Below are positions 2-58,295 of a stretch of 64,000 nt of DNA, piece by piece. This stretch comes from Sandaracinaceae bacterium. Lineage in GTDB: Bacteria > Myxococcota_A > Polyangia > Polyangiales > Sandaracinaceae. The notes under the pieces were generated by a model. That model did not search any database and was not told the DNA's origin. It saw only the letters and a list, made by a program, of their open reading frames with translations. A program made the translations under genes and the position numbers. The first letter of the stretch is position 1; every line of letters begins with the position of its first letter. Where the stretch lies: the NCBI GenBank assembly GCA_044220955.1, contig JBGAQA010000012.1, forward strand, positions 19,305 through 83,304, written 5' to 3'.

Positions 2-2119
2 ATCATCTTCGATCCGAACGTGTTCGCCGTCGCGACGGGGATCGAGGCGCACAACCGCTACGCCATCGAGTTCATCGAGGCGACCCGGAGGATCAAGGCC
101 GCGTGCCCCGGCATGAAGATCTCCGGCGGCGTGTCGAACCTGAGCTTCGCGTTCCGCGGCAACGACCACGTGCGCGAGGCGATGCACGCCGCCTTCCTGT
201 ATCACGCGATCAAGGCGGGGATGGACATGGGCATCGTCAACGCCGGCCAGCTCGCGCAGTACGACGACATCCCGAAGGACATGCTCGAGCACGTCGAGGA
301 CGTGCTCTTCGATCGGCGACCCGACGCGACCGAGCGGCTGGTGCAGTTCGCCGAGCGCGTGAAGGGTGGCGGCAAGAAGAAGGAGCTCGACCTCGCGTGG
401 CGTGACGCGCCCGTGGAGAAGCGGCTCGAGCACGCGCTCGTGCACGGCGTGATCGACTTCATCGACGCCGACACGGAGGAGGCGCGCACCGCGCTCGGCA
501 CGCCGCTGGCGGTGATCGAGGGGCCGCTGATGGCCGGCATGGGGGTCGTCGGCGATCTCTTCGGCGCCGGGAAGATGTTCCTGCCGCAGGTCGTGAAGAG
601 CGCGCGCGCGATGAAGAAGGCGGTCGCGTACCTGACGCCCTTCATGGAGGAGGAGAAGCGCCGCACCGGCACGACGGCGAAGGGCAACGGCAAGGTGCTG
701 CTCGCCACGGTGAAGGGCGACGTGCACGACATCGGCAAGAACATCGTCGGCGTCGTGCTCGGCTGCAACAGCTACGAGGTGATCGACCTCGGCGTGATGG
801 TGCCGACGGCGAAGATCCTCGACACGGCGCAGGAGCTGGACGTCGACGTGATCGGCCTGAGCGGGCTCATCACGCCCTCGCTCGACGAGATGGTGGGCGT
901 CGCGACCGAGATGAAGCGCCGCGGGATCGACAAGCCGCTCCTGATCGGCGGCGCGACGACGTCGCGACAGCACACGGCGGTGAAGATCGCGCCCAAGTAC
1001 GACCAGCCCGTCGTGCACGTCCTCGACGCGTCACGCGCGGTGAACGTCGTCAGCGCGCTCTTGAGCAAGGACCAGAAGCCCGAGCTCGATCGGAAGAACC
1101 GGCTCGAGCAGGAGCAGATCCGGAGCACGTTCGCGGGCGGGCCCGTCCGAGCGCTCGTCGGATACGCCGCGGCGAACGAGAAGCGCGCGCGGCCCGTGTT
1201 CGACCCGTCGACGCTCGCAAAGCCGCCCTTCTACGGGGTGGATGTGGTGACCGAGACGGTCGACGCGCTCGCGCCTTACATCGACTGGACCTTCTTCTTC
1301 TCGGCGTGGGAGCTGAGCGGGAAGTACCCCGGCATCTTGGAGCACCCCAAGCACGGCAAGGCGGCGCGCGAGGTCTACGACGCCGGCCAGGCGATGCTGG
1401 CGAAGCTGTCGACGGACCCGCGCATGTCGCTCCGCGGCGTGTACGGATTCTGGCCGGCGTGCTCGGAGGACAACGACATCGTGCTCTTCGCGAACGAGGC
1501 GCGCGAGGTGGAGCGCACGCGGCTGCCGATGCTTCGCCAGCAGCGGCCGCAGGACGGCGGGACGCAGCTCTGCCTCGCGGACTTCGTCGCGCCGCGCGGC
1601 AAGGGGGACGACTTCGTCGGCGCCTTCGCGGTCACGGCGGGGCTCGGGGTCGACGCGATCGTGGCGGAGCACAAGGCCGCGCACGACGACTACTCGGCGA
1701 TCCTCGTGCAGTCGCTCGCCGACCGCCTGGCCGAGGCCTTCGCCGAGAAGCTCCACGAGCGCGTACGCCGCGAGTGCGGCTACGGCGAGCCGACGCCGCT
1801 GAGCAACGACGAACGCATCGCGGAGAAGTACCGCGGCATCCGCCCGGCGCTCGGCTACCCTGCGTGCCCGGATCACACGGACAAGCGGAAGATCTTCGAC
1901 CTGCTCGATGCCAAGGCCATCGGCATGGCGCTCACCGAGCACTACGCGATGACGCCCGCGGCCAGCGTCAGCGGCCTCTATCTGGCTCACCCCGAAGCGA
2001 AATACTTCTCCGTCGGCAAGGTCGACCACGACCAGGTCGAGGACTACGCGCGCCGCAAGCACATGAGCGTCGCCGAGGTCGAGCGCTGGCTCGGCCCCAC
2101 CCTCGGCTACGAGCCCTGA
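2..2119 (+). CDS. metH: Cobalamin-dependent methionine synthase (5'-truncated by window edge)
   Basis: Pterin-domain end (SGGVSNLSF), B12-binding motif [11 protein letters not shown]...SGL, activation domain [14 protein letters not shown]; frame open to window start. Confidence 0.97.
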
Positions 2120-2135
2120 TCGGGGGGCCTGATCG

Positions 2136-2298
2136 GGGGTCACTCCAGCACCCGCCAACTGCGCGCTTTCACAGCGCTCTGGCGGGTAGGTGCGCGTTTC
2201 GTGGAACACCGCTGCGCGACAGGGCGATCCGACGAAACGCGCACCTTGCCGCCAGTTCGCTTTCGTGTCGCGTAGTTGGGTACCCTTGGAGTGACCCC
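2136..2298 (+). mobile_element. 163-bp palindromic intergenic element, copy A (REPIN/MITE-like)
   Basis: Terminal IR GGGGTCACTCCA/TGGAGTGACCCC; inner IR GGCGGGTAGGTGCGCGTTTC/GAAACGCGCACCTTGCCGCC; same length as copies at 21602 and 58064. Mobility is inferred. Confidence 0.85.
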
Positions 2299-3153
2299 AT
2301 GTGCAGGCTGTTCGGGTTTCGGAGCGTGATCCCCAGTCAGATGCACCGCTCGCTGATCGCGGCGGAGAACGCGCTCGTGCGCCAGAGCGACAAGCACCCC
2401 GACGGCTGGGGCGTCGCCTACTACATCGACGGCTCGCCGCACGTGACGCGCAGCCCGGCGCACGCGCTGAGCGACGCGCTCTTCCATCGCGTGAGCGGCG
2501 TGGTGTCGAGCGAGACCGTGCTCGCGCACGTGCGCAAGGCGACGCAGGGGGCGCACACCGTGCTGAACTGCCACCCGTTCCAATACGGGCGCTGGGTCTT
2601 CGCGCACAACGGCGACGTGCCGCGATTCTCCGAGACTCATCGCGAGGCGCTGCTCGCGGAGGTGAGCCCGCGCCTGCGCCGCTTCGTGCTCGGCGAGACC
2701 GACAGCGAGACGATCTTCTTCATGCTGCTCACGCGCCTGGCGGCCGTCGGCCCGCTCGCCGCGCCGCGTGGCGCGGCCGAGGTGATGGACGCGCTCGCCG
2801 AGACCCTCGAGGAGGTGGACCGCCTCGCGCCGCAGTCGAGCGCAGCGCCCAACCTCCTGACGTGCATCGTCACCGACGGCGTGACGATGGTCGCGCACCA
2901 GGGCGGCAAGGAGCTCTTCTTCTCCACGTACAAGCGACGCTGCGCGGACCGCGACGCGTGCGGGCACCTCGCGCCGCACTGCGAGGCCGAGACGCTCACC
3001 GGGCAGGTGAACCACCTCGTGCTCTCGAGCGAGATCCTCCACGGCGAGAACGTGTGGACGCCGCTGACGCGAGGCGAGCTCGTGGGCGTCGACTGGCGGA
3101 TGCGCCTCGAGCGGCGCGGCGGAGACCGGCGGCGTCTCGCGATCGTCGCCTAA
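2299..3153 (+). CDS. Class II glutamine amidotransferase (YafJ/EgtC-like Ntn hydrolase)
   Basis: N-terminal MCRLFG (Cys2 nucleophile), HPDGWG, HVRKAT, NCHPF, FAHNG, GETDSE motifs. Confidence 0.92.
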   Translation: MCRLFGFRSVIPSQMHRSLIAAENALVRQSDKHPDGWGVAYYIDGSPHVTRSPAHALSDALFHRVSGVVSSETVLAHVRKATQGAHTVLNCHPFQYGRWVFAHNGDVPRFSETHREALLAEVSPRLRRFVLGETDSETIFFMLLTRLAAVGPLAAPRGAAEVMDALAETLEEVDRLAPQSSAAPNLLTCIVTDGVTMVAHQGGKELFFSTYKRRCADRDACGHLAPHCEAETLTGQVNHLVLSSEILHGENVWTPLTRGELVGVDWRMRLERRGGDRRRLAIVA

Positions 3154-3156
3154 TCT

Positions 3157-3194
3157 AGAGAGGCGATCCGCTGACAGATGGGGATCGCCTCTCT
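3157..3194. terminator. Hairpin between convergent genes, likely bidirectional terminator
   Basis: Perfect 13-bp stem AGAGAGGCGATCC/GGATCGCCTCTCT with 12-nt loop, between stops at 3153 and 3204. Confidence 0.65.
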
Positions 3195-56933: not shown

Positions 56934-56980
56934 CGCGCGCGGAAGCTAGCGCGCGAGCGGCGCGATCGCGAGGGCCGCGA

Positions 56981-57988
56981 TCAGGCCAGCGTCCGGAGGA
57001 GCGCCTCGCGCTCCGTGGCGTCCGGGAGCCCGAGCGCCCCGCGCGTGTCCGCGTCCGCGTCGTCATCGCCGACGCGCCACGCCTCGAGCACCGCCTGCCG
57101 CTGGGCCTCCGTGTCGCGCGCGGCGCCGGGCGGGAGCGCCTCGAGCGCCCAGTCGTGGATGGCGAAAGAGAGCAGCGCGTGCCGCGCCTCGTCGGCCGCG
57201 ATCTCGGCGTAGGCGGCGCGGACGTCGGCATCGCGCGCCCAGCGCGCCTGCCGCGCGGCGACGAGGGCCGCGTAGGCCTCGCGCACGCAGCCCTCGACCG
57301 CGTTGTCGGCGGCCATGGCCCGCAGATCACGAAGCGCCGCCCGCGCACGGCGCACCTCCGGCACCGCGCCGCCCCGGCGAGCCGCCAGCCCGGCGACGGT
57401 CCGAGCGTGGCGGCGCTCGTCTTGCGCGGCGCGCGCCGCGGCGCGAACGAGCCGCGCAGGCGCGCCGTGCAGGGCGAGCTCGATCCCCAGCTCGTCGAAG
57501 GCCGGCACGCTCGCACGCTCGAGGTAGGCGGCGCGCGCGAGCCACCCCGCGACGCCGCCGCCCGCGTCCGCGAACGCGAGGCCCGAGGGCGCCCGGCCGC
57601 CGACGCAGAGGTGCGCGTACGAGCAGGTCAGCGTGTCGACGCCGCCCGCGCTCGCGACGCTGCACGTCACGTTCGCGTACTGCGCGCCGGCGATCCCGCC
57701 GTCGCTCCCGCTCCCGTCGAGCCCGCCGTCGGCCGGGCCGTACCCGTCGAGCCCCAGACAGACCACGCGACACGAGCTGCTGAAGTCGCCCGCGTCGTTC
57801 GCGAGCGCGGCGCGCTGCGTCGCGTCGATCGCGTGCGTGGTCATCGCGAACGGCTGACCGCACGAGCCGCCGGTGCACGTGCACGCGGACGAGGACACGA
57901 GCAGCACGAGCCCACCCGCAGGGGCCGCGAGGATCGGCAGCCCGAGCGCGATGCGGCGCAGGAGAAGACGCGCGTGTCGACCACCCAT
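56981..57988 (-). CDS. Ferritin-like domain protein (myxobacterial type)
   Basis: LERASVPAF, DERRHA, NAVEGCVRE, DEARHA; GGAGG RBS. Confidence 0.85.
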   Translation of the reverse strand: MGGRHARLLLRRIALGLPILAAPAGGLVLLVSSSACTCTGGSCGQPFAMTTHAIDATQRAALANDAGDFSSSCRVVCLGLDGYGPADGGLDGSGSDGGIAGAQYANVTCSVASAGGVDTLTCSYAHLCVGGRAPSGLAFADAGGGVAGWLARAAYLERASVPAFDELGIELALHGAPARLVRAAARAAQDERRHARTVAGLAARRGGAVPEVRRARAALRDLRAMAADNAVEGCVREAYAALVAARQARWARDADVRAAYAEIAADEARHALLSFAIHDWALEALPPGAARDTEAQRQAVLEAWRVGDDDADADTRGALGLPDATEREALLRTLA

Positions 57989-58063
57989 GCAGACCTCCGC
58001 CCGCCATCGTACCGGAGTCGTGCGGGCTCAGGAGGCGGACCGGTGGGGTCAGGGCGGACCGGT

Positions 58064-58226
58064 GGGGTCACTCCAGGGGGTCGTAACTACCGAGAACCAC
58101 TGCGAACTGGCGGCAAGGTGCGCGATTCGTCGGATCGTCTTCCGACACAGGGCGATTCCGTGAACTGCGCACCTTGCCGCAGGAGCGCTGTCGTTTCGCG
58201 GGATTGGATGGGCCTGGAGTGACCCC
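58064..58226 (-). mobile_element. 163-bp palindromic intergenic element, copy C (inverted relative to A and B)
   Basis: Same terminal IR and length; reverse complement shares ACAGCGCTC and CGATCCGACGAAnCGCGCACCTTGCCGCCAGTTCGC with copy A. Confidence 0.85.
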
Positions 58227-58295
58227 ACTCGACACCCACTCGGTCCGAAGCTCACCCCCGACCTTCGGTCGTGGCTGACTCACGCCAGACGGCGA

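Follow-up and report, generated by a model that had tools for sequence, protein, structure and literature searches.

Short tandem duplications at the tips of a TIRtron family in a Sandaracinaceae genome: possible scars of TnpA-Y1 action

RESULTS AND DISCUSSION

Element tips in the window carry one-sided tandem copies

The window considered in this study is a stretch of 64,000 nucleotides (nt) from a Sandaracinaceae bacterium (assembly GCA_044220955.1, hereafter G000; 7.5 Mb, 72.5% GC, 88% complete), located at G000:C33:19305-83304. It carries several copies of a dispersed element built from terminal inverted repeats (TIRs), in which each arm is ~67 nt long and starts with the near-invariant sequence GGGGTCACTCCA in G000. 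At the outer ends, or tips, of these arms, the first bases of the element and the adjoining flank are often present as a short tandem duplication. The elements, arms and duplications of the window are as follows.

2115-2126/2128-2139, + strand: tip duplication, 12 nt + 1 extra G + 12 nt; the copy takes in the stop codon of metH together with 4 nt of tip
2136..2298: non-autonomous TIR element, 163 nt, two inverted arms
13617..13683, - strand: solo arm; the adjoining GTGATC x2 (13684-13696) is 6 nt, flank-only and below threshold
21567-21586/21587-21607, + strand: tip duplication, period 20, with an older 8-nt event nested within
21602..21764: non-autonomous TIR element, 163 nt
21759-21784, - strand: tip duplication, period 13, right end of the 21602..21764 element
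42009..42075, - strand: solo arm
42072-42087/42090-42105, - strand: tip duplication, 16 nt + CG + 16 nt; the stop codon of a TPR-repeat gene is copied
58034-58051/58053-58070, + strand: tip duplication, 18 nt + 1 extra G + 18 nt
58064..58226: non-autonomous TIR element, 163 nt
58224-58231/58235-58242, - strand: weak tip duplication, 8 nt + ACA + 8 nt
58296..58355, + strand: tip-less partial left-arm copy (from the 58064 element; 88% across 60 nt), located 219 nt downstream

Each repeat listed in a first-pass annotation of this DNA, made from its letters alone, is present where that annotation had placed it. Its count of duplicated ends (7 of 8 intact ends) was too high, and becomes 6 of 8 by the scoring rule given below because the pair at 13684 is too short and the tip at 2298 lacks a copy. 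The genome-wide proportion is 27%, and the window is richer in tip duplications, which is no surprise in a stretch picked for this feature. An Rfam search of the window returned no match.

The 2136..2298 element takes up all the space from the metH stop codon (2119) to position 2299, where the ATG of an EgtC-like/class II amidotransferase gene begins. A relative that lacks the element at this site, G003, has the same bases after its metH stop codon as those in the flank of the 2115-2139 copy, and thus the bases outside GGGG are host DNA in G000. Another relative, G001, has a 60 nt spacer at the equivalent position, and loss of host DNA may accompany tips. At this locus, and also at G000:C11:72843, a tip directly abuts an ATG (window 2287-2301), such that the GGAG of the arm lies 7 nt upstream, at a position that a ribosome-binding site would take. 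Such zero-distance arrangements involve 2 of 106 tips in G000, with five candidates at 11 nt or less.

Tip duplications occur far above chance

To be scored, an exact tandem copy had to be at least 8 nt long, with an inner unit spanning the junction (at least 3 nt of flank and at least 1 nt of tip) and with at most 4 nt between units. Tips in G000 were collected by a motif search and a hidden Markov model of the arm; four short-arm tips were added by hand and one upstream duplicate copy was dropped, yielding 106 tips that correspond to 36 inverted pairs and 34 solo arms. Counts at thresholds of at least 8, 10 and 12 nt are given below, except where fewer thresholds apply.

Element tips: 29/106, 25/106 and 23/106
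Random sites: 213, 113 and 84 of 20,000
GGGGTC outside elements: 48, 28 and 21 of 4,770
Stop codon followed by GGGGT: 3, 1 and 0 of 742
Sites 2 nt past gene stops: 10/6,283 (at least 8 nt) and 1/6,283 (at least 12 nt)
Outer bases of other perfect inverted repeats: 8/1,376 (at least 8 nt) and 3/1,376 (at least 12 nt)
Flank offsets of -50, -70, -100 and -150: 0, 0, 2 and 0 of 106 (at least 8 nt)

The excess at tips yields a Fisher p value of at most 1e-24 against each of the three controls tested. The duplications are therefore real and occur far above chance, and the comparison with control DNA proposed in the first-pass annotation comes out strongly in favor of the pattern.

Several local features were compared among the tips. 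Copies are present at 23/72 paired tips and 6/34 solo tips (p=0.16), and therefore a dependence on the partner arm is not significant. Flank CCC that could pair with the GGGG tip is found at 18/29 duplicated and 48/77 other tips, with no enrichment, and a convergent stop codon likewise has no clear effect (14/42 versus 15/64). Tips on the leading and lagging strands give 3/15 and 4/20, respectively, with a GC skew too weak to assign strands well. The left and right flanks of all 36 pairs match over at most 3 nt, the same as for shuffled pairs. This result agrees with the earlier statement that the copies are not a target-site duplication of the DDE type.

One duplication varies between near-identical samples

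The assembly was checked on positions 2000-21999 by using Logan contigs, rather than raw reads, from four sequencing runs, and this check bears on the copies at 21567 and 21759. Runs X2 and X3 come from one study and X6 from another, and runs of low word share were left out. A 4,322 nt contig of X1, which is possibly the source of the assembly, is identical to the window over 17406-21727, including the 20-nt copy at 21567. Among the matches listed, contigs of X2, X3 and X6 lack exactly 20 nt at this location. Apart from this gap, X2 departs from the window at only one base over 21309-21999, and its contig retains the nested 8-mer and the 13-nt copy at 21759 as well as the element itself. In place of the raw-read confirmation that the first-pass annotation called for, these contigs recover the 21567 copy from X1 and the 21759 copy from X2.

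Since the 20-nt copy is present or absent in near-identical contigs, a resident element appears to have acquired it, or to have lost it, between near-identical strains. This duplication is likely to be recent and younger than the insertion, with the direction, gain versus loss, not proven. Together with the nested events described below, this variable site bears out the earlier view that these are repeated, locus-specific events at resident ends.

Anatomy of the duplications

When nested copies are collapsed, 38 events are recognized on the 29 tips, including nine tips with two nested events (a few of them doubtful), and 31 events are classed as strong (at least 11 nt). Periods range from 8 to 39 nt, with 13 nt the commonest (seven events) and 11-14 nt the largest class (15/38). 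Each event copies the first 1-8 nt of the tip (sometimes 12-35 nt) and 4-17 nt of flank. In some events, the length of the G run differs between the two copies.

Among the 23 junctions free of inserted bases, microhomology of 0, 1, 2, 3 and 6 nt is found in 10, 8, 2, 2 and 1 cases, respectively, where one of those exceeding 1 nt is a nesting artefact. The fractions expected by chance for 0-3 nt are 0.49, 0.29, 0.13 and 0.05, and microhomology is therefore at chance level. Between 1 and 4 extra bases are present at 15/38 junctions (10/31 of the strong events).

Tip positions 4-6 can accommodate the inner breakpoint of 21/31 strong events. On the strand that reads outward, this tight breakpoint falls within ...GAGT^G^A^CCCC and is centered on G^ACCCC in G000. 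A single fixed breakpoint is not supported, since the best position, 5, fits 12/31. Breakpoints do cluster at GGGGTC, in agreement with the first-pass annotation, which placed nicking at or near that sequence. The outer breakpoint in G000 is spread over 4-17 nt, and its best 3-nt window holds 13/31 events. The reverse arrangement is observed in other TIRtrons (17 events, with two multi-copy arrays left out; see below), where the outer breakpoint lies 7-9 nt outside GGGG in 14/17 and the inner breakpoint is spread (best window 6/17). In these other TIRtrons, bases just outside GGGG are often common to both ends and may belong to the TIR. No dinucleotide shared by the outer ends or breakpoints was seen by eye.

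Arms of the element family

The 36 inverted pairs in G000 include 18 of 163 nt, eight of 145 nt, five of 162 nt, and one each of 174, 84, 59, 52 and 847 nt. The element at 21602..21764 is predicted to fold, as single-stranded DNA, into one long imperfect hairpin (z -10.8). Beyond the tip, the flank is not conserved except for 60% C at position -1. By codon-model gene calls, and with no matched null, the distance from a tip to the stop codon of a gene pointing toward it is at most 5 nt in 42/106 cases.

Arm bodies have a median identity of 60% at positions 13-60. Over positions 13-46, an arm resembles its partner in the element no more closely than it resembles arms of other elements. By these measures, the arm bodies are old while the copies at their tips are exact. 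No left-right covariation was seen in the outer arm. A/T-rich positions recur at ~12, 22, 32, 43, 53 and 63 (every ~10.3 nt; Fourier peak 10-10.5 nt), and the bases between them vary freely. This ~10-nt phasing suggests that the arm may be recognized or bent as duplex DNA. A GTAG-like word occupies positions 51-54 (G44/C42, T51/A26, A84, G85, in percent) in the forms GTAG, CAAG and CTAG. Positions 13-19 occur in two states, either C-rich (CACCC-type) or G-rich (a second GGGGTC), and pairs are CG in 16 cases, CC in 10, GG in two and unclassified in four.

Two further arrangements of arms were observed. Near-identical solo arms at L002:758 and 2174 (G000:C91) lie in direct orientation, 1.4 kb apart, around a gene fragment labelled RHS-like by eye. 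In addition, an element is found just past the stop codon of the same gene in G000 (C228:22340) and in the relative G004 (L009:546). The junctions differ between the two, and ~390 nt of unrelated cargo lie inside the G004 pair.

The arms enclose a Y1 transposase gene of subclass 2.1

The 847-nt pair is an arm-gene-arm unit (G000:C77:64132-64978) that holds an open reading frame of 238 amino acids. Among pairs within 1 kb in G000, this Y1 gene is the only gene-sized stretch between inverted arms, and no DDE transposase was found between such ends. The protein scores 30.3 bits with PF01797 (Y1_Tnp), over the cut-off, and 62 bits with the REP-associated tyrosine transposase model NF047646, under its 80-bit cut-off. 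Residues N71-H72-x-H74, Y132 and N136 are conserved, and the motifs NHAH, FEQ and YVELNP are present. An AlphaFold model (pLDDT 87) has its best Foldseek match in E. coli TnpA-REP (4ER8, E 1.8e-7), followed by the TnpA of IS608. The model's C-terminal part is predicted to be helical (H165-215), with low confidence after residue 210.

Comparisons with published systems here and below refer to the available portions of the papers cited, unless they are given without a source. The protein resembles TnpA-Y1 subclass 2.1, which corresponds to RAYT group 1 (PMC6006769; Bertels et al. 2017, PMC5581495), in its NH[x]H, FEQ and YVELNP motifs, in the lack of GTAG REPs and in its association with GGGG[AT][CG]A[CG] repeats. 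Its length equals the subclass 2.1 median of 238 (PMC6006769). The subclass is marked by the motifs NHVH/NH[YF]H, W[EQ]/FQ and a YIELNP type, by a long C-terminal tail and by an HTH-like domain at the C terminus. Quentin et al. (2018, PMC6006769) provisionally equate this subclass with the TIRYTs described in PMC3733652. By motifs and length, rather than by a tree against the reference set, the enclosed gene is assigned to TnpA-Y1 subclass 2.1 (TIRYT).

A TIRtron, as described by Di Nocera et al. (2013, PMC3733652), consists of a Y1 gene between long TIRs that carry the motif GGGGWSAS, and in some cases the TIRs also form dispersed families. This motif is present in G000 as GGGGTCAC, at 97-100% per position. 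As in the TIRtron/TIRYT systems of that report, we observe long TIRs, single or dimer dispersed copies and a TIR that overlaps the 3' end of the enclosed gene. By every feature tested, the element is a TIRtron/TIRYT with non-autonomous copies. Accordingly, an HUH/RAYT-type enzyme, as named in the first-pass annotation, is still the best candidate, given the Y1/HUH gene enclosed by an arm pair. The suggestion of an undescribed enzyme does not hold, because the sole gene between the arms is a TnpA-Y1 of subclass 2.1, named TIRYT in 2013. G000 also carries a second, longer Y1/RAYT-like reading frame (L004:1054-2238; G000:C231) that showed neither a copy of the arms described here nor a clear TIR pair.

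Tip duplications in relatives and in other TIRtrons

Among 40 relatives, the exact 12-mer of the tip is frequent only in G004 (31) and G024 (7). Both carry a close TIRYT orthologue between arms, and the gene context in G004 differs from that in G000. No orthologue was found in G001, G002, G003 and G005 (81-90% complete), which have 0, 1, 0 and 0 exact tip matches, respectively. The joint presence of arms and a close orthologue in G000, G004 and G024 counts in favor of TIRYT as the enzyme of these arms. By the scoring rule, duplications are present at 2/35 tips in G004 (one listed non-arm match was dropped) and at 2/17 in G024, where two more were recognized by eye. Relatives are only ~70-90% identical, too divergent to map exact breakpoints on empty sites.

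A search for TIRs at homologous loci, seeded on the motif GGG[ATC]C, revealed a TIR pair in 24/33 loci (one being that of G000 itself), and 5/48 tips were duplicated at a threshold of at least 10 nt. At metagenome loci, a TIR pair is present in 45/80, and 14/84 scorable tips are duplicated at a threshold of at least 11 nt, compared with 3/492 offset sites. Judging from these counts, which include unrelated TIRtrons with tips of different sequence, the habit of tip duplication is family-wide and its rate is variable. Close TIRYT homologues of another genus (L029-L034, L037-L043) occupy the same two loci across several genomes. Both tips of these elements lie hard against flanking start or stop codons, and none has a tip duplication by the scoring rule.

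A proposed mechanism based on nicking and primed synthesis

Cleavage by HUH enzymes yields a 5'-phosphotyrosine as well as a 3'-OH, and the latter is able to prime synthesis or to attack the link (PMC8266576); 3'-OH priming has been proposed for REP dissemination (PMC8266576, PMC3116915). The mechanism that best fits our observations, and which we favor with confidence slightly better than even, is that tip duplications are scars of nicking by TIRYT, displacement synthesis primed by the resulting 3'-OH, and rejoining. TIRYT would nick one strand near the GGGG tip and leave a 3'-OH, which a host polymerase would extend by roughly 8-30 bases with strand displacement. Joining of the new end to the old 5' end, with the flap not removed, would then create a one-sided tandem copy, and resealing could be performed by TIRYT or by a host ligase. 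We infer the roles of TIRYT as nicking enzyme and of the resealing agent, as well as the identity of the strand cut. Such a scheme would anchor one end and leave the other variable, does not require microhomology, is compatible with extra bases and could act repeatedly, and it fits best.

For G000, the nick would lie inside the tip, in the zone centered on G^ACCCC, with outward synthesis and a variable outer end. For other TIRtrons, it would lie on the opposite strand, 7-9 nt outside GGGG, with inward synthesis and a variable inner end. Together, these two nick positions would form a stagger of ~12-13 nt across the G run, and 13 nt is the commonest period in G000. A broader formulation, which we offer tentatively and judge rather doubtful as a whole, is that TIRYTs bind the helically phased arm as a duplex, in place of a single-stranded REP hairpin. 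They would nick resident tips over and over at two staggered positions, ~7-9 nt outside GGGG on one strand and ~4-6 nt inside it on the other, such that nicking, priming and resealing write short tandem duplications into gene ends.

Several observations weigh against the nicking mechanism. The link to the enzyme is an association in a few related genomes. G004 has an open TIRYT reading frame and yet carries duplications at few tips (p=0.008 versus G000). A site-specific nick should give one fixed breakpoint, whereas the best position fits only 12 of the 31 strong events, and the outer ends share no dinucleotide by eye. Moreover, the tight end differs between the G000 family and other TIRtrons (p=0.006), which means that either two nick sites or a polymerase stall must be invoked. 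Indeed, the tight inner breakpoints could mark stalling of a polymerase moving inward.

Alternative explanations

A first alternative, which we consider unlikely, is that TIRYT makes a double-strand break at one tip, with cuts ~7 nt outside and ~5 nt inside, and that the long 5' overhangs are filled in and end-joined by the host. The largest class of periods, 11-14 nt, matches the distance between the tight breakpoints, and the lack of a microhomology excess, the extra bases at junctions and the absence of host spacer DNA beside some tips are in keeping with such joining. In further support, G000 encodes a LigD-type primase-polymerase domain, but no ligase domain was found in its reading frame. 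On the other hand, one arm is long in many events, reaching up to 35 nt inside or 17 nt outside, and the Y1 enzymes that have been characterized make cuts in single strands (PMC6006769). Ku (PF02735) was not found in G000, which has the highest rate, whereas the Ku-positive G004 has the lowest; laboratory E. coli, used as a control, lacks Ku. Ku-dependent end-joining thus does not appear to be required, though the 88% completeness of G000 leaves the absence of Ku unproven.

Somewhat less probable again is a cleavage-free origin, in which replication comes to a halt at an arm that is folded or bound by protein, and the nascent strand then slips or undergoes a backward template switch. The stable hairpin formed by the full element as single-stranded DNA, the location of breakpoints in or beside the G run, the differing G-run lengths and the higher (non-significant) rate at paired tips are all consistent with this possibility. 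Slippage is expected to use microhomology, but microhomology is at chance level here. Other inverted repeats, though mostly with shorter stems, carry copies in only 3/1,376 cases and in 0/53 of those downstream of genes, and flank CCC able to pair with GGGG is not enriched at duplicated tips. Furthermore, copies are also found at solo arms and at gene-bearing TIRtrons whose tips are ~800 nt apart. These results speak against the slippage at the hairpin base that had been put forward as an option in the first-pass annotation.

The copies hold host flank plus element tip, as would a scar left by insertion, and in principle each could date from the single event of insertion and stand in, on one side, for a target-site duplication. 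We regard this as very improbable: the same element is found with and without the 20-nt copy in near-identical contigs, which largely refutes this explanation unless X2, X3 and X6 have lost the copy, nine tips have two nested events by the collapse rule (a few doubtful), and exact copies adjoin arm bodies that appear old. Finally, all genomes examined are fragmented assemblies, but an assembly artefact at repeat edges is almost certainly not the cause, given the exact match of the independently assembled X1 contig, the copy at 21759 kept in X2 from another study, the unique junctions, often with extra bases, and the recurrence of the pattern in many unrelated assemblies.

Relation to known systems

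Subclass 2.1 is the largest non-IS Y1 group, present in 14.9% of the species sampled (PMC6006769). Relative to the TIRtrons of PMC3733652, the G000 family has arms of ~67 nt with A/T positions phased at 10 bp and a set of 106 tips, and the available text of that paper does not report partial duplications of tip plus flank or cleavage data. Inverted repeats were not found at the subclass 2.1 genes of bioRxiv 10.1101/2020.03.09.984088. As in REPtron, REPIN and BIME systems (TnpA-REP groups 2 and 3), a single domesticated Y1 gene is accompanied by numerous inverted doublets that are non-autonomous and lie in intergenic DNA. Complete REPINs or REPs are known to be repeated in tandem along with DNA from their flanks (PMC3116915, PMC3733652); unlike these arrays, which repeat whole elements, only the tip end and flank are copied here. 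REPs are short GTAG-footed hairpins cut at CT or CA, whereas the GTAG-like word at arm positions 51-54 is variable. The canonical 5' GT[AG]G hairpin foot of REPtrons is not found in G000, and a single arm has no short conserved hairpin at 51-54 in the absence of its partner.

The system also resembles the IS200/IS605 TnpA proteins (IS608, ISDra2) in its HUH/Y1 fold and its lack of target-site duplication. IS200/IS605 elements have asymmetric subterminal hairpins and a fixed target tetranucleotide, in contrast with the symmetric inverted arms found here and a flank that is unconserved beyond the C at -1.

The word 'tandem' does not occur in the available main text of PMC6006769, and nothing on tip duplications was found in the accessible parts of PMC3686654 or 10.1101/2024.07.17.603846. 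More generally, short partial-tip duplications at TIRtrons were not found in the literature searched, whose scope leaves outside supplements and figures (including Figure 9 and the additional files of PMC3733652) and most subscription papers. Likewise, no biochemical test of cutting or repeat spread by subclass 2.1 was found in the accessible literature searched. The element type is therefore already known, and the footprint is not in the literature searched.

What G000 newly provides is a rate measured against controls over 106 tips, one site that is polymorphic, evidence that speaks against slippage at hairpins in general, and a difference between families as to the anchored end. From the scars, the positions and polarity of the nick can be predicted in concrete terms, while the variable site points to a recent process acting on elements with old bodies. 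This process would repeatedly rewrite DNA at gene ends, because so many tips (42/106) lie next to the stop codon of a convergent gene. If the broader formulation above is true, then scars would map the cleavage sites of an uncharacterized transposase subclass from genomes alone, and would reveal a site-directed duplication mutator in bacteria.

Other repeats

Several repeats unrelated to the arms are also present. The window carries tandem repeats at 34204-34323 (21-nt x5.7) and 41580-41670 (18/33-nt array), and a 99-nt x3.5 tandem repeat at 14795-15137 that has many paralogous copies in relatives. Hexamer tracts of (CTCGCT)n and (CTCGAC)n are very abundant in G000, where the top 14-mer exceeds 600 copies.

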